DNA of 64,000 bases from GCF_053078305.1 NZ_CP166879.1; one strand, 5' to 3'. Positions 738 through 18,080 are shown, counted from the stretch's first letter. The notes: generated by a model from the sequence alone, not told the origin. Program-made: numbers and translations.

Positions 738-854
738 TGTTTTTATCTCCTTTCATCAACACTGTAACAATACATATAAACATTAATATTATTAAAGATT
801 CTCACCATCAATATTCGCAGTGAATAATGCAGCATCTCATATTCACATCCTGCA

Positions 855-877
855 GAGAAAACCCCTCCGGAGAGGGG
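855..877 (-). terminator. Orphan terminator-like hairpin with no supported gene upstream
   Basis: CCCCTC (862-867) CGGA GAGGGG (872-877). On the minus strand it is followed by TTTTCTC. There is no ORF of 60 aa or more to its right before 1100. Confidence 0.3.
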
Positions 878-1846
878 TGAGTGTAGCGTAATGGAGTGTT
901 ATGTAGCATGGTGCCGGGTGCCTCCCGGTGAGTTCAGTATCAGCACCTGAACCCGCACAGATAAGGGATGTGACCAAACACCTACGATACTGATATGCCC
1001 CGCCGCTCAGGGGGATTCACCATGCAGTATTTTTTTAACAAATATCCCGTAAGACCGACAATAATCCACTGACTGAACTGTGAGGTATTTAACATTTACA
1101 GATGACTGACTGTGGTGATCAGAGGTATTACAGTCATCCCCCTGTGGCTGCAGTCCGACCATACCATAACCAGCCATACGTCTTACCCGGAAAGCAAATG
1201 GAGCTTTTTGCCATAAACAACACTCTCCGGCTTCAACAAATGGAGCAGAGAATATCTTCAGAAAGTAACAATCAGTTAAAAACAGATCTTTTTTGTATTC
1301 CGTAAATTTTTCAGAAGAGAAAAAGAATTAATTGTCGCCAACGCCTTCAACAGATCGCATCATCAACGAATGATAACAACCTGAAGGATACCGCGATGGA
1401 GTTGACTGTAGACCTGCTAAAAAACCTTAACAACATCAGACAAAATGCTACTATATATGTTCACGCATACCACTATACTGATGATGAAAAATGCGTTATG
1501 GTGCCACGGATATCTTTACCATCACTGAAATTAACTCCGTTGCAATCAGAAATAATTATTCTGACATCTTCTTAATGGAGTCAATTATATAAGGCACGAC
1601 GGGTATGTTCAGGGATATGAAGAAAAAAATGTGGCAACTTTCACAATACAGGAGGAGGGACACCATCGTTTCAAAGCAGACTTATCACAAAATGGGGAAA
1701 GTGATATAGCCAGCAATGTACTAAATCACTGGCTACATCGTATACATAAAACAGATATCATTGTTCTGTCTGTTGTTCTTACAGAATAAATCCTGTTACC
1801 TCCTGAATGTTACAAGGTTTTATATTTATCCTATGAGCATACGTAC

Positions 1847-2893: not shown

Positions 2894-3118
2894 ATGACAC
2901 GCAACGCAACGCAACGCAACGCAACGCAACGCAACGCAACGCAACGCAACGCAACGCAACGCAACGCAACGCAACGCAACGCAACGCAACGCAACGCAAC
3001 GCAACAATATGCTCGCCTGAACTCTCTCCGTCAAGTACCTCTACCTCCGTGCTTTCTGGAGGTACTGTATGAATATACGCAACAATCATCTACCGGGAAC
3101 AGAAACTCTTTTTTCTGA
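2894..3118 (+). promoter_or_regulatory. Upstream leader ORF (74 codons) that translates the GCAAC tract and overlaps the mod start
   Basis: ATG 2894 with GAGG at 2885-2888. It reads the tract as a repeating five-residue peptide (NATQR)n, crosses the mod SD and ATG in another frame, and stops at 3116-3118. Confidence 0.4.
2901..3005 (+). repeat. Simple sequence repeat: 21 perfect tandem copies of GCAAC
   Basis: Counted directly: 8 copies on line 2881, 12 on line 2941 and 1 on line 3001. No interruptions. Confidence 0.97.
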
Positions 3119-5105
3119 AACTGAAACTGCGAACAGTAAACAACTTGCTGTTTTGAAAACTAACTTTCCACAGTGTTTCGATAAAAACGGAGCTTTCATT
3201 CAGGAAAAGCTGCTTGAGATCATCAGAGCATCAAATGTTGAAATCTCTAAAGAGTCATACTGCTTAAACTGGCTTGGCAAATCCTATGCTCGCCTGCTGG
3301 CTAACCTACCACCAACGACATTGCTGTCAGAAGATAAAGACCATAACCGACGTGAAGAGAACAAGAACAGTCAAAATCTGTTAATCAAAGGGGATAACCT
3401 TGAGGTATTAAAGCATATGGTTAATGCTTATTCTGAAAAGGTTAAAATGATTTATATCGATCCGCCATATAACACGGGTTCTGATGGGTTCGCCTATAAT
3501 GATGATCGCAAATTTACACCAGAACAGCTTTCTGATCTGGCGGGTATCGATCTTGATGAGGCTAAACGTATACTTGAATTTACCACGAATGGTTCAAGCA
3601 GCCATAGCGCATGGTTAACGTTCATTTATCCTCGTTTATATATTGCTCGTGAGCTTCTACGTGAAGATGGTGTGATATTTATTTCGATTGACGAAAATGA
3701 ATTAAATCAACTTAAAACTATTTGTGATGAAATTTTTGGCGAAGCAAATTTCATAGAAAATATTGTATGGAATAAACGTATCCCTAAAAATGATAAGGGT
3801 ATTGGTAATATCCATGAGTACATCCTTGCTTATGCGAAGAATAACGAAATAAGTAAAGAATTTTTAATGCGGAAAGATGGTATTGATGATGTATATCAGT
3901 TTATTGAAAAGTTAAAAAAGGAAAAGGTGCCATTAGATAAAGCAGAGCAGCAACTCAAAAAATTCTACAGCTCCAACGGATATGATCGTGGAATTACTCT
4001 TTACAACGGTTTGAACGAGGATTATAGGCCATGGGGTAAAATTAATATGAGTTGGCCTAATGCAGATTCATTTGGACCCACGTATGAAGTATTGCACCCT
4101 TTGACTAATAACCCTGTCAAAATCCCAGACAGAGGCTGGCGTTGGAAAGAAGGCACTTTTAATCATATTGCAAAAAGAATAGATGGAAAGTATGCAGATA
4201 TCAAAAAACTACATGATGGTAGCGTTATTTGTGGTGGAATTTGGTTTGCCCGTACAGAAAAAACCCAACCCAGTTCGGTTAAATTTTTAGATGAAGTTGA
4301 AGAGTTTTTACTAAGATCAATTATTTCAACTAAAAGTGATGGTGGTGTTGAGGTTGAAAATCTTTTTGGTGGGAAAGGATATTTCTCCTACCCGAAGCCA
4401 ACAAGTTTAATAAAAACACTATTTGGTTCAGTAAGAACCGAAGATAAAGACATTTATCTTGACTTTTTTGCTGGCTCTGGAACTACAGCTCATGGTATTC
4501 TGGAGTTAAATATTGAAGACGGCAGGAAAAGAAACTTCATCTGTGTTCAATTAGATGAAGAAACAGATAAAAAGAAACAAGCCTATAAAGAAGGGTATAA
4601 ATCCATCTTCAATATAACAAAAGACAGAATTATTAAGGCAGGAAAAAAGCTGAAAAAAGATAATCCTAATTATAATGGAGATTTGGGATTTAAAATATTT
4701 GAAACAGTTCATGATTTTCGAGCGAAAGATGAGTCTGAACTTACGCTTTCTAATCTTAGTTTCTTTGACGATGCTGTATTGACACCAGAGCAGTATGACA
4801 CTCTATTGACGACATGGTGCGTGTATGATGGCAGCTTGCTAACAACACCAATTGAAGATATTGACCTTAATGGCTACAAAGCACACTTGTGCGATGGTCG
4901 GCTATATCTAATTGCGCCTAATTTCACAAGTGAGGCTTTGAAAGCTTTACTTCAAAAGCTGGATGCAGACAAAGACTTTGCCCCTAACAAAGTTGTATTT
5001 TATGGCAGCAACTTCGAAAGTGCGAAACAGATGGAACTCAATGAAGCACTAAAAAGTTATGCTAATAAAAAATCTATTGATTTAGATTTGGTGGTAAGGA
5101 ACTAA
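3069..5105 (+). CDS. mod: Type III restriction-modification methyltransferase (Mod), beta-class N6-adenine type
   Basis: 678 aa. DPPYNTG (motif IV) comes before FFAGSGTTAHG (motif I), the order seen in type III Mod. GGAGG SD at 3058-3062. The stop lies 2 nt before the res ATG. Confidence 0.9.
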   Translation: MNIRNNHLPGTETLFSETETANSKQLAVLKTNFPQCFDKNGAFIQEKLLEIIRASNVEISKESYCLNWLGKSYARLLANLPPTTLLSEDKDHNRREENKNSQNLLIKGDNLEVLKHMVNAYSEKVKMIYIDPPYNTGSDGFAYNDDRKFTPEQLSDLAGIDLDEAKRILEFTTNGSSSHSAWLTFIYPRLYIARELLREDGVIFISIDENELNQLKTICDEIFGEANFIENIVWNKRIPKNDKGIGNIHEYILAYAKNNEISKEFLMRKDGIDDVYQFIEKLKKEKVPLDKAEQQLKKFYSSNGYDRGITLYNGLNEDYRPWGKINMSWPNADSFGPTYEVLHPLTNNPVKIPDRGWRWKEGTFNHIAKRIDGKYADIKKLHDGSVICGGIWFARTEKTQPSSVKFLDEVEEFLLRSIISTKSDGGVEVENLFGGKGYFSYPKPTSLIKTLFGSVRTEDKDIYLDFFAGSGTTAHGILELNIEDGRKRNFICVQLDEETDKKKQAYKEGYKSIFNITKDRIIKAGKKLKKDNPNYNGDLGFKIFETVHDFRAKDESELTLSNLSFFDDAVLTPEQYDTLLTTWCVYDGSLLTTPIEDIDLNGYKAHLCDGRLYLIAPNFTSEALKALLQKLDADKDFAPNKVVFYGSNFESAKQMELNEALKSYANKKSIDLDLVVRN

Positions 5106-5107
5106 TC

Positions 5108-8020
5108 ATGTCTAAAGGGTTCACATTCGAAAAAAATTTACCTCATCAAAAGGCTGGCGTTGATTCGGTAATGAATGTCTTTGTATCCGCCATACCTCAT
5201 CAGACGGATCATGTTGCAATTCGCCTGTTAGCTAATCCAGAACTGAATCTATCTGAACAACAATACTACAACAACATAAAAAATGTTCAGGAGTTCAATG
5301 GTATTGAGCACTCAAAAGATAATTACGATGCTAAAAGCAACGTAATTGATGTTTCTATGGAGACAGGTACAGGTAAAACTTATACTTACACCAAAACAAT
5401 TTTTGACCTGAACAAATCATTTGGTATTAACAAATTTATCATCATTGTTCCTACCCTATCGATCAAAGCCGGAACCGTTAACTTTTTAAAAAGCGATGCT
5501 ATAAAAGAACACTTTCGAGATGATTACGAGCGTGAACTAAAGACTTACGTTGTTGAAAGTCAGAAAAGTTCGGGTAAAAATACAAAATCGTATATGCCTC
5601 AAGCTATCCATGATTTTGTTGAAGCAAGTAATTTCAATAAGAAATATATACACATTCTTGTGATCAACTCAGGGATGATTAACTCTAAGTCTTTAACTGA
5701 CACTTATGATGTTGGCTTGCTTGATAATCAGTTTGATACCCCATTTTCTGCACTTAGTGCGATAAAACCATTCATTATCATTGATGAGCCTCATAAATTT
5801 CCTACTGGTAAAAAGACATGGGAACATATTCAAAAATTTAATGCCCAATATATCATCCGCTATGGCGCAACCTTTAGTGAAGGCTATAAGAACTTAGTTT
5901 ATCGTCTTACAGCCGTAGATGCCTTCAATGAAGATCTTGTTAAAGGTATTGATGCATACATTGAGGATATAGTTGGTGATGGTAATGCCAACCTCAAGTT
6001 GGTCAAATCTGACGGAAAAGAAGCTACATTTGAACTGAACGAAAATAATAATAAAAAAATTTTTAAGTTAGCCAAAGGTGAATCACTATCTAAGACGCAT
6101 AGTGCGATCCATGATTTAACTCTTGATGCTTTAAATAAGAATACAGCAGTGTTGAGTAATGGTATTGAGCTAAAAATTGGTAGTTCGATAAACCCCTATT
6201 CTTACGATCAGACACTTGCTGATAACATGATGCGTAAAGCTGTCAAAGAACACTTTAAGTTAGAAAAAGAGTATCTGACACAAAGGCCACGCATAAAACC
6301 TCTTACTCTTTTCTTCATTGATGACATTGAAGGCTATCGTGATGGTAATGATATTGCAGGAAGCCTGAAAACTAAGTTCGAAGAATACGTTTTGGCAGAA
6401 GCAAATGAACTGTTAAAAACAGAGAAAGATGAGTTTTACAGAAACTACCTTGAAAAAACTGTTAAGGATATATCTTCTGTTCATGGTGGTTATTTTTCAA
6501 AAGATAATAGTGATAAAGATGATAAAATTGAGCAGGAAATCAACGAAATCCTTCATGATAAAGAGCTTCTATTGTCTTTAGAAAATCCTCGCCGTTTCAT
6601 TTTCTCTAAATGGACGTTGCGTGAGGGATGGGATAACCCAAATGTCTTTCAGATTTGTAAGCTCCGTTCGAGCGGTAGCACCACATCTAAACTTCAGGAG
6701 GTAGGGCGTGGTTTACGTCTTCCAGTGAATGAATACATGTGCCGTGTGAAAAACCGCGATTTTACTCTCAACTATTATGTTGATTTTACGGAAAAAGATT
6801 TTGTTGATTCTCTTGTAAAAGAGGTTAATGATAGTTCTTTCAAAGAAACTGTTCCAGGTAAGTTTACTCAAGAACTTAAGGATAAAATCTTATCTCAGTA
6901 TCCTGAGCTTTCATCCAGAACACTCATGAATGAGATCTTTGATGCTGAAATTATTGATGATAATGAAAACTTCAAAGATTCCGATGCCTATAGCCGTTTA
7001 AAAGCAAAATATCCGGCTGCATTCCCTACCGGGGTGAAACCAACAAAAATAAAAAAAGCCACGGATGGAAAAAAGCGTACTAAAATGCGTATTGGTAAGT
7101 TCAGTGAGTTGAAAGAACTATGGGATTTGATCAATCAAAAAGTAGTAATTGAGTATAAAATAAATAGTGAAAATGAATTCTTATCCATTTTCAAATCATT
7201 CATGATTGAAGAAACAGATAGATTTACTAAATCAGGTGTTCATACTCGCATTGATAGAATTTATATTCATAATGATACGGCGATGTCGAAAAGTATCGTC
7301 AGTGACGATGATAACTTTGCTAAACTAAACACAATGAGCTATCGGGAATTTCTTGATAACTTATCACAAACTATTTTTGCTAAACACGATACCTTACATA
7401 AGGTTTTTTGTGATATAAAAGACACTATCAATATCACCGACTACCTGAACATTCAGACAATCAGAAAGATTAAATCTGGGTTTAGCAAGTATTTGTTGAA
7501 CAATTCATTTAACAAATTCAGCCTTGGATATAATGTAATTTCAGGCTCAATTCATCCTACAAAATTCACTAATGCAGACGGTAATCACCTGCATGAGGTA
7601 TTATCAGGTGATCTTGGAGTATTACAGGATAATACAAAAGCCCCCCTAGACTCTTATCTTTTTGAAGAAGTTTTTTATGATTCAGAGCTTGAAAGACTCA
7701 ATATAACAGACGGAGAGATCCACTCTGTTGCTGTTTTTACAAAGATACCGAAAAACTCAATTAAAATTCCAGTGGCAGGTGGATACACATATTCTCCTGA
7801 CTTTGCTTATGTTGTAAAAACAACAAAGGGTGACTACCTTAACTTTATTATTGAAACAAAAAATGTCGAAGGTAAAGAAAGTTTACGTAAAGAAGAACTG
7901 GATAAAATAAAGCATGCACAAAAACTTTTCGAACAGGTAAGTAAATCTGTAAAAGTAACTTTTATAACTCAATTCTCAGGTGACAGAATCCATGATCTGA
8001 TAAAAAATGTGATTCAGTAA
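5108..8020 (+). CDS. res: Type III restriction enzyme, Res subunit (SF2 helicase plus PD-(D/E)xK nuclease)
   Basis: 970 aa. Contains GTGKT, IIIDEPHKF (DEPH box) and QEVGRGLRLP (motif VI). The C-terminal SPDFAY...IIETK is nuclease-like. Confidence 0.9.
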   Translation: MSKGFTFEKNLPHQKAGVDSVMNVFVSAIPHQTDHVAIRLLANPELNLSEQQYYNNIKNVQEFNGIEHSKDNYDAKSNVIDVSMETGTGKTYTYTKTIFDLNKSFGINKFIIIVPTLSIKAGTVNFLKSDAIKEHFRDDYERELKTYVVESQKSSGKNTKSYMPQAIHDFVEASNFNKKYIHILVINSGMINSKSLTDTYDVGLLDNQFDTPFSALSAIKPFIIIDEPHKFPTGKKTWEHIQKFNAQYIIRYGATFSEGYKNLVYRLTAVDAFNEDLVKGIDAYIEDIVGDGNANLKLVKSDGKEATFELNENNNKKIFKLAKGESLSKTHSAIHDLTLDALNKNTAVLSNGIELKIGSSINPYSYDQTLADNMMRKAVKEHFKLEKEYLTQRPRIKPLTLFFIDDIEGYRDGNDIAGSLKTKFEEYVLAEANELLKTEKDEFYRNYLEKTVKDISSVHGGYFSKDNSDKDDKIEQEINEILHDKELLLSLENPRRFIFSKWTLREGWDNPNVFQICKLRSSGSTTSKLQEVGRGLRLPVNEYMCRVKNRDFTLNYYVDFTEKDFVDSLVKEVNDSSFKETVPGKFTQELKDKILSQYPELSSRTLMNEIFDAEIIDDNENFKDSDAYSRLKAKYPAAFPTGVKPTKIKKATDGKKRTKMRIGKFSELKELWDLINQKVVIEYKINSENEFLSIFKSFMIEETDRFTKSGVHTRIDRIYIHNDTAMSKSIVSDDDNFAKLNTMSYREFLDNLSQTIFAKHDTLHKVFCDIKDTINITDYLNIQTIRKIKSGFSKYLLNNSFNKFSLGYNVISGSIHPTKFTNADGNHLHEVLSGDLGVLQDNTKAPLDSYLFEEVFYDSELERLNITDGEIHSVAVFTKIPKNSIKIPVAGGYTYSPDFAYVVKTTKGDYLNFIIETKNVEGKESLRKEELDKIKHAQKLFEQVSKSVKVTFITQFSGDRIHDLIKNVIQ

Positions 8021-8103
8021 ACACATGCATGATAACAAAGTGGAGGTGGTTTCACCCCCACTTTATAATTATACACACATCACAAAATTCGCAGGTGAGT
8101 TCA

Positions 8104-8802
8104 ATGACAACATGTTCTGAACTGAAGGAAAGAGCCCGTTTTGATGGTATGCATGATGCTTCTCTTGAAGTGGCATGGCAATTACTTATGACGAAAAGTG
8201 TATCCACTATTACTACTGAGATAATATCCGGTGCAGACATGTCCAATTTTTCAGTGATTATCAGGGAACGATATAAACATGCAATAGCAAAATCTCTTCT
8301 CAATCATTTATCTCCCGATGTTGTTTCTGACATCATCGGTTTATCTCATGATGAGTTCAATCAACAATATAAAGGCAATTTAACCAGACAACAACACCTG
8401 AGAGATATTGCTGTAAGTTTAACAGATAAAGGATTCACAGAATCATCTGCATGTAATATTGTCAACCTGGACCTAATGTTACTTCCTGAAGAAAACTGGT
8501 TACTTTATAAAGAAAATTACAATACAGGATATCAGGATGCACTTTATAAATCCGTATGGAGAATGCACACATACGAATATCCAACAGCAACCATCAGTTG
8601 TTTGACAAAATTAAATAATGAAAATATATTAAATATTATTACAGGTATAGAAGTAATACTCCTCGCAGCAAAAAAACCTGCATGTAAAGACAGAACAGAT
8701 AAAATTGCTGAAATGCTGAAAATACCATTCTCTGTCGTCAAAGAATTTATTGATGAACAGGCTTTATTGAACAAATCAAACATTCAGGGAACTGGCAGTT
8801 GA
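8104..8802 (+). CDS. hypothetical protein (232 aa) immediately downstream of res
   Basis: Start set at the ATG at 8104 (MTTCSELKER...), which follows AGGTGAG. Two HTH-like segments are present, but no family was recognised. Confidence 0.45.
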   Translation: MTTCSELKERARFDGMHDASLEVAWQLLMTKSVSTITTEIISGADMSNFSVIIRERYKHAIAKSLLNHLSPDVVSDIIGLSHDEFNQQYKGNLTRQQHLRDIAVSLTDKGFTESSACNIVNLDLMLLPEENWLLYKENYNTGYQDALYKSVWRMHTYEYPTATISCLTKLNNENILNIITGIEVILLAAKKPACKDRTDKIAEMLKIPFSVVKEFIDEQALLNKSNIQGTGS

Positions 8803-8828
8803 ACAAAACGCCAGTCCGAAGACTGGCG
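8803..8828 (-). terminator. Rho-independent terminator for the 8849-9535 gene (hairpin shared with the + strand unit)
   Basis: CGCCAGTC (8809-8816) CGAA GACTGGCG (8821-8828). On the minus strand it is followed by TTTTGT. Confidence 0.6.
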
Positions 8829-8848
8829 CAGTGATAAAACATTCTGCA

Positions 8849-9535
8849 TCATGCCACATTCTGCTCCTGAAGATGACGCAGACGATGGTCCCAGTTTCCC
8901 AGGTAATGCCCGGGCGTCAGCAGTACGCGGCGTCGCTCATTACAGAGCGAGTTACCAATCACCACTTCTCCGGCCACACCACACAACGACAGTTGTATAT
9001 ACGCCATGCCGGCTGCCAGCGGGTCAATATCCGTTGCCGACACCCACATCCTGCGATATGCCGGATACCCCGAACGGTTCAGGGTGTCAGCCATTGCCAG
9101 AATCATACTGCCGGCACCACAGGCAGGTTCACTGAGCGTGATAAAGGGTTTGTTCTCAAACAACGCCTTCACATCTCCCATCTGCATCTGTGCCATCATG
9201 CTGGCAACACTCCAGGGCGTGAAAAACTGACTCCGGTATTTATCCCCCAGTTCCAGTTGCATGAACACACTCCCCAGAAAATCACAGACTCCCTGCTCCA
9301 GTCCCTCAATGACATGAGCAAGCAAATGCGCAATGTGGATAACATCCTGCTTTTCATAACCACTGACGATCCGCAGATACTTCTGTTCCCGGGCCTCACT
9401 GAACTGAAGCCGGTTTTCCAAGGCAATCACACTACAGCTGACAAAGTCTTCAAACACCTTATGACGTTTGTGATAACAGGCTGTCCGGTTAAACAACGAA
9501 ATGAACTCCTTCTGATGGTCAGTCATGGTGGCCAT
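8849..9535 (-). CDS. N6-DNA-methyltransferase-like protein that ends before the catalytic motif IV
   Basis: 228 aa. Contains FFTP, EPACGAGS (motif I) and TDIDP (motif II). The ORF ends after VIGNSL with no (N/D)PP(F/Y/W) motif. GGAG SD. Confidence 0.6.
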   Translation of the reverse strand: MATMTDHQKEFISLFNRTACYHKRHKVFEDFVSCSVIALENRLQFSEAREQKYLRIVSGYEKQDVIHIAHLLAHVIEGLEQGVCDFLGSVFMQLELGDKYRSQFFTPWSVASMMAQMQMGDVKALFENKPFITLSEPACGAGSMILAMADTLNRSGYPAYRRMWVSATDIDPLAAGMAYIQLSLCGVAGEVVIGNSLCNERRRVLLTPGHYLGNWDHRLRHLQEQNVA

Positions 9536-9545
9536 GTTTTCTCCG

Positions 9546-9591
9546 TAAAAACAGGGAACACATGGCCCGGACAGGGGAACAGGTGTTCCCC
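9546..9591 (-). terminator. Terminator with two alternative stems downstream of the 9647-10594 gene
   Basis: GGGAACAC (9554-9561) pairs with GTGTTCCC (9583-9590); alternatively GGGGAACA (9574-9581) pairs with TGTTCCCC (9584-9591). TGTTTTTA follows on the minus strand. Confidence 0.55.
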
Positions 9592-9646
9592 TTCGGGTTG
9601 AAATGTTGATAAAACGGGCATCACGGACATGATACCCGGAGGTTAA

Positions 9647-10594
9647 TTACTGGGCTGAGACCAGAGGAACCGGTAAAGGTGCGGCTTTCGTCTGTTCTTC
9701 AGCGCACTCCTCCACCAGGTACAGTCGGGGCTGTGGAAGTGTTTCCCTGCCCGGCCATTCGGCCTGCAGATCACTGTCCGTATGCTCTCCGCCATCGTAA
9801 CAGTTGTAACCCTGTATACCGTGTACCGGCTCGCTGTACCAGTGTCGGACCTCGCAGTCAAACACCTTCGAGATCTCACCAACCAGTTCGCCTGAAGGCG
9901 GATACCAGGGCGTGTCGATCAGCAGCACCAGACTGCTCATCTCATCACGCGCATGGCGAACATTATTTCCTGACGGCCACTCCACACCGTATATCCGGCT
10001 GTAAAGGCTGGTCGTTGTGGAAATACCCTGCAGCAGTCCACCTGAACCATTCAGCTCTGTAGCCAGACGGGAGGGTATGACCATCAGCATGTCACAGGGC
10101 TGCGCCTGTTCCGGGTAATCCGACAACCAGCTCCAGCAGGCTTCTGCATCAATGTGTTCACTCAGCCCGGCCAGACCAAACCAGTCAGAATACTGACGGC
10201 TCATCAGCGTGGTGATGATCTCCCTGGCATTATCCGGCAGATTACCCCAGCGAACAGCGCCGATACATGACTGGTGATAAAGACGCTCAATGGTCTTTAT
10301 CGTTTCACCATCCAGAACGGCATTTTTTACCAGCAACCCCAGCCACTGCTCAAACGCCTGGTTAGCCGGAGATGACAACCCCGTTCCGTGACGAACCAGC
10401 GCCGGATATGGCGGATACTGCGTCGTCCGTGTGGGTTTTACCAGCCCTGCACAACCGGCCAGAAACAGCTGTATACTCTGCTGTATGGCATGACGGTAGC
10501 GCGGGGTCTCACGCCCTTCAATCCACTGTGTAAGTACATCAAGACAGACTGATTTACCGGTAATTTCAAAACGGTTTTTGCACCATTCAGACAT
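9647..10594 (-). CDS. hypothetical protein (315 aa), conjugative-element type; possibly DUF1281-like
   Basis: AGGAG SD. The N-terminus MSEWCKNRFEITGKS resembles my memory of DUF1281/Api92-like proteins (low certainty). Confidence 0.55.
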   Translation of the reverse strand: MSEWCKNRFEITGKSVCLDVLTQWIEGRETPRYRHAIQQSIQLFLAGCAGLVKPTRTTQYPPYPALVRHGTGLSSPANQAFEQWLGLLVKNAVLDGETIKTIERLYHQSCIGAVRWGNLPDNAREIITTLMSRQYSDWFGLAGLSEHIDAEACWSWLSDYPEQAQPCDMLMVIPSRLATELNGSGGLLQGISTTTSLYSRIYGVEWPSGNNVRHARDEMSSLVLLIDTPWYPPSGELVGEISKVFDCEVRHWYSEPVHGIQGYNCYDGGEHTDSDLQAEWPGRETLPQPRLYLVEECAEEQTKAAPLPVPLVSAQ

Positions 10595-10623
10595 TGTTTA
10601 CGCTCCTCTTTTTTATACAGATG

Positions 10624-10661
10624 TAAAAAGAGGGCATTGTCCCGTGAGGTACAATGCCCTC
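10624..10661 (-). terminator. Rho-independent terminator after the 10678-10992 gene
   Basis: GAGGGCATTGT (10630-10640) pairs with ACAATGCCCTC (10651-10661). TTTTT follows on the minus strand. Confidence 0.6.
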
Positions 10662-10666
10662 ACGGG
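10641..10666. repeat. GC-rich dyad, family 1 (CCCGTGAGG ... CCTCACGGG)
   Basis: 9-bp perfect inverted repeat that overlaps the terminator stem, so the two pairings are mutually exclusive. Lies ~47 nt upstream of start 10594. Confidence 0.8.
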
Positions 10667-10677
10667 AAAACGGGGTA

Positions 10678-10992
10678 TCACGCCCCGTTGTTGCGGATAA
10701 AACCCTGCAGCCAGGCAGTTCGCTCAGGGCCATACCGCCTGTTGACATTCATCAGTTCGTCTGCAGACGGATTGATGAAAAGGTTGTAGTACCAGAGCTC
10801 TTCCTTTAAATCCGCCAGGTTCCCCCTGCCGGTCCTGAGCCACTCCTGTACAACATCCCTGATTTCAGATGTGACATCTCCACGGTAATTTGACGTGATC
10901 GTAACATCTGCCAGTAATTCACTGATATTTCCTGCTATCAGACACGGTTCAGAGATCCCGTTACAGAACCAGACAAGGCATTTACCAGCCAT
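10678..10992 (-). CDS. hypothetical protein (104 aa)
   Basis: GGAGG SD 6 nt upstream. Packed 3 nt from the upstream gene. Confidence 0.55.
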   Translation of the reverse strand: MAGKCLVWFCNGISEPCLIAGNISELLADVTITSNYRGDVTSEIRDVVQEWLRTGRGNLADLKEELWYYNLFINPSADELMNVNRRYGPERTAWLQGFIRNNGA

Positions 10993-10995
10993 ACC

Positions 10996-11433
10996 TTACC
11001 TCCTGTATTTGCTGGTATTTATCCCGATCTCGTTTATGGCTACGGATATGTTGCCCGGAAAACGCGCTGTTTCAATCTTCTCCAGCTCGTTTTTCCGGTA
11101 ACGCTCCACGGTCACACTCAACGGGACGTTCCCCTGTCCGTACTCTTTACGAAGGCGATCAATACACTCCTGTACCAGTTCATCGCTGAAATAACGGGAT
11201 TCAAGCACAGACAGCAGCCCGTCTTTATTCTCAAACCCCTCTGTGACAGAGCGTACTTCGGCCTCCGTTGGACCATCCAGCCAGCTCACCCACACATTGT
11301 TGAAAACTTTCGGGAAAGATGGATCGCATTTCCGCACAGAAAATTTCTGTCCCGGAAATGTATACGCCAGCACATCCCTGATACGGGCCACAACAGCATC
11401 GTCAACATCAACCAGTGCGTTATCGTTCATCAC
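10996..11433 (-). CDS. hypothetical protein (145 aa)
   Basis: AGGAA SD. The composition looks coding. No motif recognised. Confidence 0.55.
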   Translation of the reverse strand: MMNDNALVDVDDAVVARIRDVLAYTFPGQKFSVRKCDPSFPKVFNNVWVSWLDGPTEAEVRSVTEGFENKDGLLSVLESRYFSDELVQECIDRLRKEYGQGNVPLSVTVERYRKNELEKIETARFPGNISVAINEIGINTSKYRR

Positions 11434-11472
11434 TCAGTTCCTCTGTAATCCTGAAATAACAGAGAGCACTGC

Positions 11473-11498
11473 CCCGTGAGGGACAATGCCCTCACGGG
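11473..11498. repeat. GC-rich dyad, family 1 (CCCGTGAGGG-N6-CCCTCACGGG)
   Basis: 10-bp perfect inverted repeat with the same loop ACAATG as the 10641 copy. Lies ~40 nt upstream of start 11433. Confidence 0.8.
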
Positions 11499-11539
11499 AT
11501 AAATGGCGGTCAGGTTATAACCGCCACCGGTAGTAAAAA

Positions 11540-12517
11540 TTATGCTGCGCACTCCTGCGAAGTTCGCCGCGTCAGTAAATACTCTGATGCTTCACGTGCC
11601 TGCCGGCAGGCGCGAAACAGCGCTTTTTTGTCAGACTTCAGAACCTTAAGCCATCCGTCAATATAACTTTCGTGCTGTACGTCACCGGCAATCCCGAGAT
11701 GTGCACACAGAAAAGCACTGCCCATCTCGGCAATCAGCTCTTCAAACGCATATTCCGGGCTTTTGCGACCGGTAAAGGTACTTATCCCCACCCGCCGCAG
11801 GCGCTTTTCATGACCGGTACTGTGTACCAGCTCATGCAGCAGGGTGGCCTGGTAATCAGCCACCTGGTCAAACTGCGACGACAGTGGCATCACGATACGG
11901 TCAAGATCAGGCCGGTAGAATGCCCTGTCCTGTGGAAGTGACGAGACGCTGACGCCGCTGCCATTCAGTACCTGCAGCACCCGCTCACTGAAGGTATCTG
12001 CCGGCAGTGCATCCGCGCTGCCTTCCGCCTTCACCATCAGATGTTCAGGTAAACCGTCACACTGCCCCACATTAAACAGAGGATTCGATTTCAGTACCGG
12101 TACGATTTCCATGAGAGGCTCCCCCTCACTGTCCGTCAGCCGGTTACCGTGTTCATCCACAGCCTGTTTTTTCCAGTCTTTGTAAATCACCGCCAGCGTG
12201 GCCACCTCCCCTTTACGGACGTGGCCACCCAGTTGTTGCGCCTGACGGTACGTCAGCCAGTCATTGCTGACATACCCGGCTTCATCCGCGGCCAGCCACA
12301 GCAACAGGACGTTCACCCCTGTATAAGGCTTCCCGGTCAGGGCATTTGCCGGCATCATCTCCGGAAGCCCCACGCCATTACGCGCAGAGCGCCAGGGACG
12401 TTTCCAGGGTGGCACACCATTTTCAATGGCCGTAACAACCCTGTCGGTCACAAGCTGATACAGGTCACGTTCCGGAGTTTTAATCGCGGTACGTGAAGTA
12501 TGTTTTTTCGTTTTCAT
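11540..12517 (-). CDS. ardC: ArdC-type antirestriction protein (ssDNA-binding N-domain plus zincin metalloprotease domain)
   Basis: VVTAIENGVPPWKRPW (ArdC-N pattern) and LLHELVHSTGH (HEXXH). Start moved to ATG 12517 (MKTKKHTSR...), giving 325 aa. Confidence 0.8.
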   Translation of the reverse strand: MKTKKHTSRTAIKTPERDLYQLVTDRVVTAIENGVPPWKRPWRSARNGVGLPEMMPANALTGKPYTGVNVLLLWLAADEAGYVSNDWLTYRQAQQLGGHVRKGEVATLAVIYKDWKKQAVDEHGNRLTDSEGEPLMEIVPVLKSNPLFNVGQCDGLPEHLMVKAEGSADALPADTFSERVLQVLNGSGVSVSSLPQDRAFYRPDLDRIVMPLSSQFDQVADYQATLLHELVHSTGHEKRLRRVGISTFTGRKSPEYAFEELIAEMGSAFLCAHLGIAGDVQHESYIDGWLKVLKSDKKALFRACRQAREASEYLLTRRTSQECAA

Positions 12518-12609
12518 AAGAGCATGCCCCCTGAAAAAGATGCACGCTCCCTGTACGGTGAGAGTGCACCGTACAGTTAAATTAATAACGAAAATCAGAC
12601 TGGCCAGAA

Positions 12610-12993
12610 TTACCACAACGCCAGCATCACCAGTGAACGACGCTCAAAATCAAACGTCTTCAGCGTATTGCTGACCCACGCTTTTACGTCATCCACGTCA
12701 TACCAGTAATCACCGGCATAATCTTCCCCCCGTAAACACGAGCCTGTGACATAAGGAAACAGCCTGTGGCAGTTCCCCGGTGTCAGCATACTGAGGTCGC
12801 GCAATAATGCAGCCAGTGAACTGCGGGTTACAGGGAAAGCATGCTGCTCATCTGAAGCACCGGTATGTTCACGAAACCATGTCAGAAGAGGTTTCACCTT
12901 ACGGAAAGCCCCCACCTCCTGATGTTCCTGTGTTCCCACAACGGCACCACTGTGATGGTTATCACGAGCCAGAAAGTAAATATCGAGTCCCAT
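12610..12993 (-). CDS. hypothetical protein (127 aa)
   Basis: Start at ATG 12993 (MGLDIYFLARD...), preceded by AGGAG. Confidence 0.5.
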   Translation of the reverse strand: MGLDIYFLARDNHHSGAVVGTQEHQEVGAFRKVKPLLTWFREHTGASDEQHAFPVTRSSLAALLRDLSMLTPGNCHRLFPYVTGSCLRGEDYAGDYWYDVDDVKAWVSNTLKTFDFERRSLVMLALW

Positions 12994-13108
12994 AACAATT
13001 CTCCTGAATAAAGCCGGGACTCTCCCCACAGGGATATGTCCCTGCCGGGTGATATAATGACGGAATACGTGATGACGTTATTCCGGATAAAGAAACTACG
13101 GCGTTCTG

Positions 13109-13738
13109 TTACCGCCCACCGGCAAGAGCCCGCAGCCAGTAAAGCTGATATTCGGCCTCTTCCAGTGCTGCCCAGTCATCCGGGGATAACTGTCGCCCCT
13201 GACCGGACAAAAACTGCAGCAGTAAGCTGTCAAACACATCTCCCCTTACCAGGGTGGTTAATACAGACTCCGGAGCAGAAAAATTCTCATGCCCCAGGTA
13301 CCGTTTTATCCATTTCAGCGGCAGCGACCAGCTGGCACCACCGACAGTGGAATGAATACGAAAACAGTCCGGACACAGATTGTGCAACAGCACAAAGACT
13401 GTACGGGCAAAGAAATCTCCCGGCTGACGTCCGAAATTCAGCTCATTAAGAGCCAGAATATTCCGGCTGTGCTCCCGCTCAATAGTGACATTCACCGACC
13501 ACAGCCCGTCGGCAGACCGGCAGTAAAACGCCAGCGTGTCCGTTACCGGAAACAACTCTGACGCCCGGGTCAGGGAGCCGAAATACGCATTCTGCGGCCG
13601 TAACGCCTCCGGCAACTGCCAGAAGGTTTCAGTGGCAGCCAGAACAAAAGCATGCCACTGCTTTTCCGGTATTGTGGAAACCTGCTCAAGGGTATATACC
13701 ACCGGCTCACGGGCCGGACGTGAAGATAACTCAGACAT
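13109..13738 (-). CDS. hypothetical protein (209 aa)
   Basis: Start at ATG 13738 (MSELSSRPAREP...), preceded by GAGGA. Confidence 0.5.
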   Translation of the reverse strand: MSELSSRPAREPVVYTLEQVSTIPEKQWHAFVLAATETFWQLPEALRPQNAYFGSLTRASELFPVTDTLAFYCRSADGLWSVNVTIEREHSRNILALNELNFGRQPGDFFARTVFVLLHNLCPDCFRIHSTVGGASWSLPLKWIKRYLGHENFSAPESVLTTLVRGDVFDSLLLQFLSGQGRQLSPDDWAALEEAEYQLYWLRALAGGR

Positions 13739-13780
13739 GGAACATTCCTCATGGTTAAAACGAAACAACGGGGAATGTCT

Positions 13781-13807
13781 CCCGGACGGAGAACTCCCCC
13801 GTCAGGG
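13781..13807. repeat. GC-rich dyad, family 2 (CCCGGACGG ... CCGTCAGGG)
   Basis: 8 of 9 positions pair. Lies upstream of start 13738. Confidence 0.6.
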
Positions 13808-13819
13808 TCAGGTCATGAA

Positions 13820-14197
13820 TTACATCATGTCGTGCCGGGCAAAATATTCATCCGCTCCGGCCACCATCTTTCCGGTACTGATACTGTCAGCCCAGATTTC
13901 ATGATTAATTTCACGCCCCAGAGCCATCAGACTGTCGAGTGCCTGACGGGCCTGAATTCCCGGTGCGGAAATCTCCTCCTGCTCCAGGTCATACAACAGC
14001 CAGCCCAGCGCCTCGCCGGTATCCCACAGATACACGTATACCAGTGAAGGCTCCGTCTCATCATCCGGCTCCGGGGTAATACCCAGCCGTTGCCAGGCTC
14101 GTAACCGCATCAGCTCGCCTTCCATCTGACTGATATGAGCCAGCAGAGCAGACTGCGTCTGAAGCGCTGAATAATGAGCAATTAAAGGTGAATACAT
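13820..14197 (-). CDS. hypothetical acidic protein (125 aa)
   Basis: GGAGG SD. Rich in D and E. Confidence 0.5.
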   Translation of the reverse strand: MYSPLIAHYSALQTQSALLAHISQMEGELMRLRAWQRLGITPEPDDETEPSLVYVYLWDTGEALGWLLYDLEQEEISAPGIQARQALDSLMALGREINHEIWADSISTGKMVAGADEYFARHDMM

Positions 14198-14228
14198 GAT
14201 GACCTCCGTCTCTTAAAGGAAGTCCTGT

Positions 14229-14256
14229 CCCTGACGGAACAAAACTCCCGTCAGGG
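14229..14256. repeat. GC-rich dyad, family 2 (CCCTGACGG-N10-CCGTCAGGG)
   Basis: 9-bp perfect inverted repeat with loop AACAAAACTC, followed by AAAACACC. Lies 32 nt upstream of start 14197. Confidence 0.8.
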
Positions 14257-14509
14257 AAAACACCGGCGCAAAAACACGGTGCAGTAAGTAAAAGAAAAAC
14301 CGTTACGGGAGCAAAACAGCCATCATTGCAAAATGGCAGTTGCATCGCTCACGATTTGACATCCTTCCTGTGACTGACTGGCATCCTGCCCGTCAGTCTG
14401 CGTCGGAAAATTCAATACAGGCCTGCTTCAGGAGCCCGGCTATACGTTGATTCAGACATTCCGTCCAGCCATCGTTCCATCCACGCTCCCATGGATTGCA
14501 GACATCCTC

Positions 14510-14872
14510 CTATGGATTGCAGACATCGTTACAGCCATTCTTCCATGTCTTCCATGCCTCCATCTCCATGACAGCCCCCAGCCTGTGGCCTTTCACACGT
14601 ATATGCCACAGAAACGGCCGGAAAAGTCCTGATTTCAGTTGGTCACCACCGCTTTTGTAGCCCAGATGACATGCAACACTTTCAGTATATTCAAATGCAT
14701 CATTCTGCATTCCAGCCGCCTTAGCCAGCGAGCTGTACGCATCACGAAGTATCGTCATACCTTCCAGTTGATACTCACACCACGCACGGACAGCCGACAC
14801 TGGTGCGATTACCCGAAGAATGGTGCAGGGACGCCATACAACAATGTAAAGGAGTATTAACAGACTATGCAT
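14510..14872 (-). CDS. hypothetical protein ending at an amber codon inside a 21-bp tandem duplication; the frame stays open to 14393
   Basis: TAG at 14510-14512 corresponds to TGG in the neighbouring repeat copy. See findings. Confidence 0.4.
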   Translation of the reverse strand: MHSLLILLYIVVWRPCTILRVIAPVSAVRAWCEYQLEGMTILRDAYSSLAKAAGMQNDAFEYTESVACHLGYKSGGDQLKSGLFRPFLWHIRVKGHRLGAVMEMEAWKTWKNGCNDVCNP

Positions 14873-14889
14873 GTGTTCACCTCAGATAC

Positions 14890-14933
14890 AAAAAATAACG
14901 GGAACACACCTGCCTTGCGGGAAGCGTGTTCCC
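14890..14933 (-). terminator. Rho-independent terminator after the 14955-15347 gene
   Basis: GGGAACAC (14900-14907) pairs with GTGTTCCC (14926-14933). GTTATTTTTT follows on the minus strand. Confidence 0.6.
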
Positions 14934-14954
14934 GACAGGGTAATAAATGATAAA

Positions 14955-15347
14955 TCAGCAGGGCTGTGCGACGATTCCATCACCCTGCAGACCAAACCGG
15001 TAACGCAGGGTGGTCAGTTGCTCCGCCATACGGCAGGCAGCATGCCATGTCCTGCGACGGGATATCCGTCCGGTAAACCGGTTCAGATAAATGACCTCAC
15101 GCGGTAACGGCTGATACCATCCTGTGTACTCGTTGCGATACATTCCCTGCCGGTAATACAGGCAGGGTGTCCAGACACCGCCACGACGGAACATACAGAC
15201 CCGCACGCTCAGATTGCCGGCCGGATTAGTGTACCAGCGACTGTAATATGACAGGTTATTGCGGGAAAAAAACACCCGCAACTGAGCCGTCATTCGCCGG
15301 AAAAAAGAAGAGATGCCCGGTTCAGGGCACAAAATAAACGTTGACAT
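14955..15347 (-). CDS. hypothetical protein (130 aa)
   Basis: Start moved to ATG 15347 (MSTFILCPEP...), preceded by AGGAG. The longer ORF-track version would run into the structured repeat. Confidence 0.5.
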   Translation of the reverse strand: MSTFILCPEPGISSFFRRMTAQLRVFFSRNNLSYYSRWYTNPAGNLSVRVCMFRRGGVWTPCLYYRQGMYRNEYTGWYQPLPREVIYLNRFTGRISRRRTWHAACRMAEQLTTLRYRFGLQGDGIVAQPC

Positions 15348-15378
15348 AAAGACTCCTGTAAAAAAACGGGAGCCTTCG

Positions 15379-15406
15379 CCCCGACGGACAAAAACTCCCG
15401 TCAGGG
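15379..15406. repeat. GC-rich dyad, family 2 (CCCCGACGG-N10-CCGTCAGGG)
   Basis: 8 of 9 positions pair. Same loop and same trailing AAAACACC as the 14229 copy. Lies 32 nt upstream of start 15347. Confidence 0.7.
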
Positions 15407-15442: not shown

Positions 15443-15777
15443 GAAAAAGCCCGTTAATAAAGGGCGCAGTTATAAAGAAACCTTCATCGTCATGACTGAC
15501 GATATCTGCTCTCAAAGGTGGGCAGATTTACCACCACCAGAAACATCCTGGCTGCACATCCCCTTTCAGGTTACGGGGGTGTTGATCACCCGAAGGCGTT
15601 CCTCTCAGATCAACGGAACATTGGTGCCCACCGAAGCGGGATGTGGTCACCCGAAGGCGCTCCTCTCAGACCACTTATGGAGCATTGGTGGTCGCCGAAG
15701 CGACATGTAGCCACCCGAAGGCGCTCCTCTCAGGCCACTTGTGGAGCATTGGTGGTCGCCGGAGCGACATATAAGCC
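15443..15777 (-). ncRNA. STAXI-like structured element, locus A: three tandem ~64-nt pseudoknot modules plus a ~135-nt 3' part
   Basis: On the minus strand there are six UNCG tetraloop hairpins, two covarying stems per module, G.U pairs that exist only in the minus-strand reading, and a terminal GCCC/GGGC hairpin followed by U5. See findings. Confidence 0.55.
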
Positions 15778-15782
15778 TGTAT

Positions 15783-15811
15783 ATTTTTAAATCACAAAAG
15801 ATGAATGTCAA
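15783..15811 (-). promoter_or_regulatory. Candidate sigma70 promoter for locus A
   Basis: Minus strand: TTGACA (15811-15806), 17-nt spacer, AAAAAT (15788-15783). The predicted start falls just before the first hairpin. Confidence 0.4.
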
Positions 15812-15812
15812 G

Positions 15813-16136
15813 TTATTCAACATCAATCCAAAGAGGAATATTATGTATTCCCTTAACGGGTTCTCCCAGAGGAAAAACACAGGTCCCTTTAATCAGTATT
15901 TTTCTTCCCGACCATCTGACATCACAGTTAAAATCTCCCACCACATCAAAATAATCCGCAATGGATTCATAGATGTCCCATTCATCATAGATATCCCATT
16001 TATCTGCTGTTCCTTCACATTCAAACTCGGCCTGATATCCGGAATCAACATATCGCGCCAGATAGTGTGACCACAAAGGCGAATTTTTTGTAATCTCTTT
16101 TACAGAGATTATTTTCAGCAAAATAGTACAATCCAT
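15813..16136 (-). CDS. hypothetical acidic protein (107 aa) downstream of the recombinase
   Basis: ORF only. D/E/W-rich. No clear SD. Confidence 0.4.
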   Translation of the reverse strand: MDCTILLKIISVKEITKNSPLWSHYLARYVDSGYQAEFECEGTADKWDIYDEWDIYESIADYFDVVGDFNCDVRWSGRKILIKGTCVFPLGEPVKGIHNIPLWIDVE

Positions 16137-16168: not shown

Positions 16169-17071
16169 TTACTCATAGCCTAACAACTGACAATAAACCT
16201 GTTCAATATATCGTCCTCTGCCATCACCATGACCAAGATCAATTGATGTCAGTGCAAGTGCCTCCTTATAACTGTAACCGTTCATAATATGATATTTCAT
16301 GGCACTTGCAGCGTAACTGTACCGAAAACTGTGTGCAGTCTCATCTCTGCCTTTCAGTTCTCCATAACGACGTAATGTATTAAGATAATAATCCATTGCC
16401 GACTTAAGATTATCTCTGTCTATAAGACGTCCATTATGTTCACTGGCATATTTGAGTGCATAATTAACAGCATCAAGAACGTTATCCCGGTCAACAACCG
16501 TTGTCATTCTTTCCCGTCCCCCTTTCGTACCAAAAATCACTCTTATTTTTTCATCTCCCCGTTGTAACGCTTTTTTCCAGGTTCGTAATGATTTGGCCGA
16601 CTGGATAGCTTCTTCATTTCTCAGACCGAGGTAACGTGACAGTTTAACAACAGCAGCCACCCCTTTATCTTTTGCTTCCACACGCTGAAGAATCTCCCGA
16701 AAACGCTCATCCGTGATTAATTTTTTTGTTCCCTTACGACTGGAGCCGGAAATGCCTAACGCTTTATTGCTGAGACGAGGATGTTCGGGATCAGCCATCT
16801 TATATTTACCTGCCTGACGTAACATAACCCGTATTGCAGACATTTCATTTTCCCTTGTTCGCCCAGAAACATTATTCCGGCTTCTCATATATAGCTCAAT
16901 ATGCCGGACTTTTACCTGCGCGGCAGAACTGATCTGTACATTCATTTTTGCCAGACTTTCAGCAAAGCGGTGCATGATCCTGGTGTAATCACTCAGCTTC
17001 TTGAAGCTGCCTTTGTCTTTTCGAATGTGAGCAACCAGATCCTGTTTCAGTAATTTTTCACGTCTGGACAT
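16169..17071 (-). CDS. Tyrosine recombinase (XerC/D-like phage-integrase family)
   Basis: YLGLRNEEA (Arg I), AHSFRYSYA (HxxR) and LGHGDGRGRY (catalytic Tyr). Start set at ATG 17071, preceded by GGAG 6 nt upstream. The ORF-track start at 17086 is a GTG. Confidence 0.85.
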   Translation of the reverse strand: MSRREKLLKQDLVAHIRKDKGSFKKLSDYTRIMHRFAESLAKMNVQISSAAQVKVRHIELYMRSRNNVSGRTRENEMSAIRVMLRQAGKYKMADPEHPRLSNKALGISGSSRKGTKKLITDERFREILQRVEAKDKGVAAVVKLSRYLGLRNEEAIQSAKSLRTWKKALQRGDEKIRVIFGTKGGRERMTTVVDRDNVLDAVNYALKYASEHNGRLIDRDNLKSAMDYYLNTLRRYGELKGRDETAHSFRYSYAASAMKYHIMNGYSYKEALALTSIDLGHGDGRGRYIEQVYCQLLGYE

Positions 17072-17120
17072 CAACTTCTCCTGCACATAATAATTTTTAC
17101 CTTAAACAGCTGTACGTTCG

Positions 17121-17171
17121 GCAGATGAGTTTTTCTGTTGTGCCGTGAACACAACAGAAAAACTCATCTGC
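17121..17171. repeat. Perfect 22-bp inverted repeat (7-nt spacer), 50 nt upstream of the recombinase start
   Basis: GCAGATGAGTTTTTCTGTTGTG (17121-17142) pairs with CACAACAGAAAAACTCATCTGC (17150-17171). No T-run on either side. Confidence 0.9.
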
Positions 17172-17782: not shown

Positions 17783-18050
17783 GCCCGTAATAAAGGGCGC
17801 GGTTAAAAGAAACCTTCATCGTCATGACTGACGATATCTGCTCTCAAAGGTGGGCAGATTTACCACCACCAGAAACATCCTGGCTGCACATCCCCTTTCA
17901 GGTTACGGGGGTGTTGATCACCCGAAGGCGTTCCTCTCAGATCAACGGAACATTGGTGCCCACCGAAGCGGGATGTGGTCACCCGAAGGCGCTCCTCTCA
18001 GACCACTTATGGAGCATTGGTGGTCGCCGAAACGACAGATAATGTATTCT
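17783..18050 (-). ncRNA. STAXI-like structured element, locus B: two tandem modules plus the same 3' part
   Basis: Identical to locus A over 15477-15699 / 17809-18031, at an offset of 2332. Confidence 0.5.
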
Positions 18051-18051
18051 G

Positions 18052-18080
18052 AGCATATCAGAGCGCATAAAAGGCGTCAA
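18052..18080 (-). promoter_or_regulatory. Candidate sigma70 promoter for locus B
   Basis: Minus strand: TTGACG (18080-18075), 17-nt spacer, TATGCT (18057-18052). It lies in sequence not shared with locus A. Confidence 0.4.

Follow-up and report, generated by a model that had tools for sequence, protein, structure and literature searches.

A co-directional array of small genes around ardC in a chromosomal conjugative element of Escherichia coli: a candidate establishment operon headed by a STAXI RNA motif

Our analysis of a 64,000-nucleotide stretch of DNA from GCF_053078305.1, NZ_CP166879.1 (here called the window), which is chromosomal and belongs to a conjugative element of a Shiga-toxin-type Escherichia coli, concerned an array of small minus-strand genes around ardC at positions 8849 to 15347. 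With a probability of roughly 0.6, we read this array as a backbone module of an integrative and conjugative element (ICE), fixed in position and variable in content, that most likely serves as an establishment or anti-restriction operon with internal terminator-like hairpins. It looks like the ICE's counterpart of the gene set of plasmid leading regions and would thus be of a kind already known.

All nine open reading frames (ORFs) of the original prediction were found at its coordinates and are called by RefSeq in 99%-identical E. coli chromosomes, and the strong Shine-Dalgarno (SD) sequences that it described are present as GGAG/GAGG-type sites 5 to 9 nucleotides (nt) upstream of every start. 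The start of a tenth gene, o9 (14510 to 14872), which had been left aside as uncertain, is sound, with GAGGTG followed by ATG. A transcript entering at the array head would cross about 10 genes, all on the minus strand: o10 (14955 to 15347; a basic orphan of 130 amino acids, pI 10.5), o9, o8 (13820 to 14197; an acidic orphan of 125 amino acids, pI 4.4), o7 (13109 to 13738; an orphan of 209 amino acids), o6 (12610 to 12993; an orphan of 127 amino acids), ArdC (11540 to 12517), an LPD29-domain protein (10996 to 11430), o3 (10678 to 10992; an orphan of 104 amino acids), a DUF1281/Api92-like protein (9647 to 10594), and a short gamma-class N6-adenine methyltransferase (MTase)-like protein (8849 to 9535). 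A terminator-like hairpin with a UUCG loop (8808 to 8829, minus strand), located by terminator scan and folding, closes the array. Pfam sees four recognizable genes rather than the two previously assumed, namely, N6_Mtase (weak), DUF1281 with DUF1281_C, LPD29, and ArdcN with MPTase-PolyVal. The description of the products as small and acidic applies to o8, o3, and the LPD29 and DUF1281 proteins but not to o10 or o9 (pI 8.65).

By its sequence, the array ArdC is intact and has the domains that define the ArdC family, and relief of restriction is predicted for it. An ArdC-N single-stranded DNA (ssDNA)-binding domain (PF08401, residues 18 to 148; E = 1.7e-36) is joined to a C-terminal zincin metallopeptidase domain (PF18818; E = 2.5e-38), in the translation of which HELVH and a downstream Glu helix, EELIAEM, can be read. 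The protein aligns with R388 ArdC (PDB 6i89) over residues 16 to 315 and both domains (E = 6e-60), and the two-domain architecture, the HExxH motif, and the glutamate helix are shared with ArdC of the IncW plasmids R388 and pSa (PDB 6i89/6sna; PMC7213743). R388 ArdC is required in recipients against HsdRMS, a function for which its protease activity is not needed, and it is effective if made in the recipient but ineffective if overproduced in the donor (PMC7213743).

The DUF1281 gene and the MTase-like gene are present in every relative compared and are thus the constant anchors of the array, and F-plasmid leading regions have them too. The DUF1281 protein is a close homolog of "Api92" (PDB 2ijr; E = 2e-117); its homologs are found on at least 5,000 plasmids, 79% of which are conjugative, and a scan of genome contigs gave five loci only. 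Homologs of the MTase-like protein, which belongs to a well-conserved Enterobacterales family of about 227 amino acids, are found on 2,199 plasmid records (69% conjugative). Both families occur in IncF leading regions on the ssb/psiB strand. On the IncFII(K) plasmid pIT-01C22, psiA and oriT/traM flank the MTase-like gene, which is on the strand of ssb and psiB (locus L014, 11866 to 12699), and on pO157 the order is DUF1281, a small beta-class methylase, and a KlcA-type antirestriction gene, with ssb downstream (locus L015, 11025 to 12996); both settings are typical of leading regions (PMC11541004). For genes in the anti-defense islands of plasmid leading regions, expression on entry is the classical pattern (Samuel et al. 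2024, PMC11541004). The array resembles such regions in being a one-directional series of small genes of variable content, in which a known anti-restriction gene and an MTase-like gene stand among others that are largely orphans; it differs from them in lying on a chromosomal MOB_H/MPF_G ICE, in having no Frpo/ssi-type promoter, and in the distance of about 70 kb to ssb.

A second likeness is to the polyvalent proteins of conjugative elements (Iyer et al. 2017, PMC5512222), with which the array shares ArdC-N, zincin MPTase, LPD29, and N6-adenine-methylase-like domains. ArdC-N and MPTase are hub domains of these proteins and LPD29 is an associated domain, and all three have been tied to the early phase of invasion (PMC5512222). 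In the array, where the LPD29 domain is recognized by Pfam in an acidic protein, the domains stand in separate small ORFs and not in one giant polypeptide.

The promoter-bearing structured element that had been placed at the array head proved to be a sigma-70-like promoter (TTGACA-17-AAAAAT, 15783 to 15811, minus strand) followed by tandem units of the STAXI RNA motif (15455 to 15780, minus strand; Rfam match 15476 to 15641, 64-nt tandem units). A distal STAXI copy (17788 to 18042, minus strand; Rfam match 17872 to 18037) follows a sigma-70-like promoter of its own (TTGACG-17-TATGCT with TG, 18052 to 18080, minus strand). Both copies consist of tandem pseudoknot units with UUCG loops, and their scores, 75.7 bits at the array head and 91 bits for the distal copy, lie above the Rfam gathering threshold of 40.5 bits for STAXI (RF01728). 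On the gene strand, the order is STAXI, EFASI (RF02957; 17214 to 17371, minus strand; 53.2 bits in Rfam), a small tyrosine-recombinase-like gene annotated as an "integrase domain protein" (16169 to 17086, minus strand; Pfam Integrase_1 and Phage_int_SAM_2), the acidic orphan o11 (15813 to 16136, minus strand; 107 amino acids), STAXI, and the array. This succession of STAXI, EFASI, integrase gene, STAXI, and antirestriction genes fits the published descriptions of the two motifs (Weinberg et al. 2010, PMC2864571), and the Rfam text on them, quoted in PMC12370729, agrees with the integrase and antirestriction neighborhood seen here. STAXI was named for nearby Ssbp, Topoisomerase, Antirestriction, and XerDC Integrase genes, with no function assigned (PMC2864571), whereas in this ICE every copy has a sigma-70-like promoter ahead of it and a terminator-like hairpin behind it.

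The two STAXI copies of the window lie in a 232-nt direct repeat (15474 to 15705 and 17806 to 18037) that is 100% identical and has EFASI, the small integrase gene, and o11 between its copies. Such perfect identity suggests gene conversion or a recent duplication; recombination between the repeats would delete the integrase module. A third copy was found in the ICE of a relative, JNEC-KY171, between topB and an STY4534-hyp-ssb operon (locus L004, 10878 to 11260), again with a promoter ahead and here with a CCCTGACGGG hairpin behind, and the distance from promoter to STAXI is conserved even where the sequence has diverged. Three operons of one ICE, namely, those of ssb, of the small integrase, and of the array itself, begin with such a promoter and STAXI unit, and the CCCTGACGG hairpin follows the copies at the array head and at the ssb operon. 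At the array head (15365 to 15406, minus strand), this hairpin overlaps a 17-bp terminator-like hairpin followed by T7, directly before the SD site of o10. The ssb operon and the array, each headed by a promoter and STAXI unit, may be co-regulated. The STAXI module also occurs in Salmonella and Rosenbergiella, and the small integrase gene is conserved in both and in SGI-4. One paper reports the detection of STAXI and EFASI RNA by reverse transcription-quantitative PCR in vesicle preparations of Shiga toxin-producing E. coli. We also noted a perfect inverted repeat of 22 nt with a 7-nt spacer (17121 to 17171), situated after EFASI and before the small integrase gene, that could be an operator or a terminator.

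As had been claimed from the sequence, hairpins occur between the genes, with one or two GC-rich hairpins in every spacer. Folding z-scores of the spacers relative to dinucleotide shuffles range from -1.7 to -6.65, with 7 of 10 stretches beaten by none of 200 shuffles, and 29 terminator-like sites were observed where 9.3 +/- 3.0 are expected. The stem motif CCCTGACGGG, with at most one mismatch, is found 17 times in the window (2.4 +/- 1.5 expected), and 12 of these occurrences are within 10657 to 15406. In at least five spacers (12518 to 12560, 11431 to 11470, 10595 to 10640, 14198 to 14228, and 13739 to 13780), a second hairpin is formed between an upstream pyrimidine tract and the SD sequence of the gene that follows, which suggests translational coupling or repression.

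The element directly upstream of the DUF1281 gene, TCCCGTGAGGGCATTGTWCCTCACGGGACRATGCCCTCTTTTT (10626 to 10670, minus strand), is more conserved than the adjoining coding DNA, since 2 of its 43 positions differ (about 95% identity) between the window and loci whose flanking proteins are 55 to 65% identical. It can fold into two mutually exclusive hairpins. A U-run comes after one of them, GAGGGCATTG...CAATGCCCTC, which can accommodate U.G pairs on the mRNA-sense strand. As a sequence pattern, this points to termination at the RNA level with a competing upstream hairpin, and the hairpins of the element after STAXI overlap in a similar way. We infer that read-through at the spacer elements may be regulated. 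A more specific proposal, possible by analogy though on the whole doubtful, is that these elements are RNA switches, in which a hairpin with the stem CCCTGACGGG or CCCGTGAGGG overlaps a terminator, and that together with the promoter-STAXI leaders they would form a dedicated antitermination regulon gating the establishment genes. In Bgl/Sac-type antitermination, a ribonucleic antiterminator (RAT) element overlaps the terminator; here, a hairpin of conserved sequence overlaps the terminator hairpin. In pLS20-family plasmids, the establishment genes are regulated by processive antitermination through internal terminators. Between their establishment operons and the array there is no sequence relationship, and antitermination is proposed here from the overlapping hairpin pairs. 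Papers on the pLS20-family plasmids deal with establishment genes, ArdC among them, and with their dedicated regulation. If such a regulon existed, it would give the orphan STAXI motif a function.

The position of the array emerges from comparison with related elements. The host element is, judged by its genes, an ICE of the PFGI-1/SPI-7/SGI-4 class, with an MPF_G type IV secretion system (T4SS) and a TraI-domain relaxase, the element being inserted at tRNA-Phe in relatives; ICEEc2, YAPI, and SGI-4 are named elements that we take to be members of this family. In close relatives, the order from the tRNA-Phe side is Int, TraI relaxase, UvrD-like helicase, cargo, MTase-like gene, DUF1281, ArdC, orphans, the small "integrase domain" gene, cargo (ireA, ter), TraG, TIGR037xx T4SS genes, TraD, pilL2, ssb, STY4534, topoisomerase III, STY4528, ParB, DnaB, and ParA, with the whole backbone on one strand and ssb, about 70 kb from the array, in its own STAXI-headed operon. 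The backbone order from ParA to Int in the relatives is a likeness to the SPI-7, YAPI, SGI-4, ICEEc2, PAPI-1, and ICEclc family of ICEs. Within the window, a TraG homolog lies at 55246 to 56748, and positions 26431 to 64000 are about 99% identical to a relative annotated with TIGR037xx-type T4SS genes, TraG, and TraD. No homolog of the TraI-domain relaxase, UvrD, or the tRNA-Phe tyrosine integrase lies within the window, in keeping with the earlier remark that the relaxase gene is outside it; all complete relatives have relaxase and integrase genes. Positions 1 to 2219 match a segment 3.6 kb from UvrD in strain NCCP 13963, so that, if the source genome is organized likewise, the relaxase genes would lie just past the left edge of the window.

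At the DNA level, the region has no plasmid match. It is found on the chromosomes of 117 of 5,426 complete E. coli genomes, one of which covers the full query and most of which lack 10678 to 11433. STAXI-like DNA on records labeled as plasmids was ruled out as plasmid-borne, these being circular ICE forms such as pSGI4. The same block of STAXI, integrase, ArdC, DUF1281, and MTase-like genes is present in SGI-4, and in pSGI4 it is followed by sil/pco cargo, UvrD, TraI, Int, and ParA. The orphans o3 and o6 to o10 and the LPD29 module, compared with SPI-7/SGI-4-type ICEs, are lineage specific.

Considering these data, we propose a model for the array. The sigma-70 promoter would drive a transcript that starts with the STAXI tandem-pseudoknot leader, and the genes along it would be set apart by terminator-like hairpins and by hairpins occluding SD sites. 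The products, presumably made early after transfer, would act on the incoming ICE DNA or in its vicinity in the new host, where ArdC would bind ssDNA and blunt type I restriction. The conserved anchors of the module would be DUF1281 and the degenerate half-methylase, with the orphans as exchangeable accessories. The anti-defense and leading-region reading of the original prediction draws support from ArdC, the ICE context, with the array upstream of UvrD-TraI-Int and on their strand, the homologs in F leading regions, and the insertions and deletions (indels) described below, and loses some from the promoter, the MTase-like protein, and the orphans.

Several points weigh against this model, beginning with the fact that ArdC is the sole array gene whose anti-defense homolog has experimental backing. 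A Salmonella relative lacks ArdC, so that ardC is not an obligatory gene of this ICE family; in this, and in being known here from its sequence, it differs from ArdC of R388 and pSa. The MTase-like protein had been called restriction-related together with ArdC, and for ArdC, a full-length homolog of the R388 protein, this holds. The MTase-like protein matches Pfam N6_Mtase (PF02384) with 23 bits at profile positions 24 to 118 of 311, and 24 family members all retain its motifs X (QFFTP), I (EPACGAG), and II (D169). Motif IV, however, is GN[AS]L in 24 of 24 members (GNSL in the array protein) where NPPY/F is expected, and the protein ends about 30 residues past this motif. Its model (predicted local distance difference test score of 92) has a helical N-domain and four beta-strands only, compared with the seven-stranded class I fold and target-recognition domain; among solved structures, N6-adenine MTases such as HsdM and PacII come closest, with query-normalized TM-scores of about 0.4 to 0.47. 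Because the catalytic NPPY and half of the fold are missing, the protein appears to be restriction-related by ancestry only, and on sequence and model we would not class it as a functional methyltransferase. An identity with the ssDNA methylase M.EcoGIX was ruled out, as that enzyme is beta-class with DPPY, and the 227-amino-acid methylase beside DUF1281 on pO157 is also beta-class with DPPY and not of the MTase-like family. Separately, we observed that F-type plasmids pair DUF1281 with a small orphan beta-class methylase while the gamma-like half-methylase sits apart, near oriT; that DUF1281 repeatedly stands beside a small MTase may point to a link in function.

The orphans, too, count against the model, as none matched a Pfam, NCBIfam, PADLOC, or PDB entry that points to a function. 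The profile searches that had been proposed for every ORF yielded domains for the four genes named above, and neither sequence nor profile searches nor, for o7, a structure search gave a functional or structural clue for the orphans. Searched against Pfam, NCBIfam, PHROGs, and PADLOC, o3 (PHROGs 10958 and 32750), o6 (PHROG 7971), and the nearly E. coli-only o8 (weakly, PHROG 22073) matched only unnamed PHROG families, and o7, o9, o10, and o11 matched none. PDB sequence searches with o3, o6, o8 (as a profile), o10, and the LPD29 protein gave chance-level matches only; a match of o10 to STING (E = 0.003) was disregarded, as no stretch of it was significant by itself. The rare family of o7, in a profile search of 1.84 billion representatives, comprised 40 clusters with homologs of up to 342 amino acids and no domain fusions. 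Furthermore, o9 is a pseudogene here, truncated to 120 amino acids by a TGG-to-TAG change where intact relatives have 152 to 159. The stop lies in the first of two copies of a 21-nt repeat, GATGTCTGCAATCCATGGGAG, at 14510 to 14530; the repeat encodes a Trp-rich motif and is present in one or two copies in relatives. That this nonsense change ends the gene early explains the odd 312-nt "spacer" downstream of o9. In one E. coli protein (P0144), an N-terminal portion of o9 is joined to a C-terminal portion of o8, which indicates recombination between neighboring array genes.

The comparison with leading regions meets its own difficulties. Folding of the template-strand DNA revealed no Frpo-like promoter hairpin; the promoter stays unpaired, and STAXI forms short hairpins. 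Very early expression from ssDNA is therefore not indicated, and a Frpo/ssi-type ssDNA promoter at the array head was ruled out, as the -35 and -10 boxes are not embedded in a long hairpin. Leading regions of MOB_H elements are hard to define, as oriT, the relaxase gene, and the mating pair formation genes can be dispersed, and ICEclc has two oriTs. An oriT of the ICEclc family has been reported beside a helicase ORF. We found no oriT location for the present ICE family in the readable literature and no oriT coordinates of ICEclc or PAPI-1 in the open literature, and an alignment of the regions upstream of UvrD gave a short inverted repeat only, too weak to call oriT. This repeat, GTGACAG...CTGTCAC, directly upstream of the UvrD start, is common to SGI-4 (locus L013, 33540 to 33590) and Rosenbergiella (locus L008, about 16000 to 16060) and is a candidate operator or oriT-related site.

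The gene order opens the way for another hypothesis, in which the array works on the donor side. In this scenario, which we consider possible but unlikely, the genes would be expressed in transfer-competent donors together with the helicase and relaxase genes, and their products would process or coat ICE ssDNA or exit with it through the T4SS as polyvalent proteins do, rather than being made afresh in the recipient. The array is co-directional with and upstream of UvrD-TraI-Int, at a distance of 0.15 kb in an Erwinia relative and of 8 to 27 kb where cargo lies between, so that in lean relatives it is contiguous with UvrD-TraI; the promoters are ordinary sigma-70-like sites for double-stranded DNA. 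ArdC-N has been called a "header" domain found in proteins that accompany DNA on transfer (PMC5512222), and ArdC of pSa and TraC1 reportedly undergo transfer. The behavior of R388 ArdC, which is functional if the recipient makes it but not if the donor overproduces it (PMC7213743), argues for the recipient instead, as do the DUF1281 and MTase-like homologs in F leading regions, where genes are classically expressed on entry (PMC11541004).

Content differs considerably between elements. Most E. coli relatives lack o3 and the LPD29 gene, with the junction exactly at a 45-nt hairpin repeat, whose upstream copy (11458 to 11502, minus strand) forms one boundary of the indel. The Salmonella element without ArdC lacks these two genes too and has an additional o9 paralog, Rosenbergiella has ArdC, DUF1281, and the MTase-like gene only after STAXI, and in an Erwinia contig UvrD-TraI begins 155 bp after the MTase-like gene. 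Such gains and losses of whole genes are as expected of an arms-race region. They would also fit genes that, ArdC apart, are mostly dispensable hitchhiking cargo or decaying, and the nonsense mutation in o9 and the very narrow families of o7 and o8 speak for the same idea. We nevertheless regard this as improbable, since the position between the STAXI-integrase module and the helicase-relaxase genes is fixed across genera, DUF1281 and the MTase-like gene are present in every relative and on thousands of plasmids, and a spacer element is better conserved than the coding DNA around it. An integron-like platform, in which the conserved small tyrosine recombinase encoded upstream would exchange modules at the spacer hairpins, is suggested by the o3-LPD29 module bounded exactly by two 45-nt hairpin copies and by the enrichment of the stem motif in spacers, but it is very improbable and was rejected because the Salmonella ArdC indel, one of two resolved, has no hairpin at its junction, while homologous recombination between the 45-bp repeats can explain the other, the Integrase_1-family recombinase gene is co-directional with no attI/attC-like R/L-box architecture, and the conserved hairpin, by its G.U pairs, belongs to the mRNA-sense strand, where a U-run accompanies it, as in a terminator.

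Directly downstream of the array and convergent with it lies a complete type III restriction-modification system (3069 to 8020, plus strand), with Res and a Mod that has an EcoP15I C-terminal domain, followed by an ORF of 257 amino acids (8029 to 8802, plus strand) for which no family match was found. In relatives, the same cargo slot is occupied either by a KwaB-like gene or by subAB together with nan genes. The interval from TraG to the helicase gene is a defense and anti-defense hotspot in PAPI-1 (PMC12629846), and the slot of the type III system corresponds to it. Farther to the left, an STnc100 small RNA (RF02076, 138.7 bits; 852 to 1054, minus strand) lies in a dolP/DUF465 segment common to relatives.

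ICEs of this family spread subtilase toxin, tellurite resistance, copper and silver resistance, and defense systems through the Enterobacterales. The array provides a concrete list of candidates (o3, o6, o7, o8, o10, and the LPD29, DUF1281, and half-methylase proteins) for functions that would act during the establishment of such elements, and two of these families are also carried by thousands of F-type plasmids. Finally, STAXI and EFASI now have a defined regulatory position, after promoters and ahead of three ICE operons, and their function thereby becomes testable.

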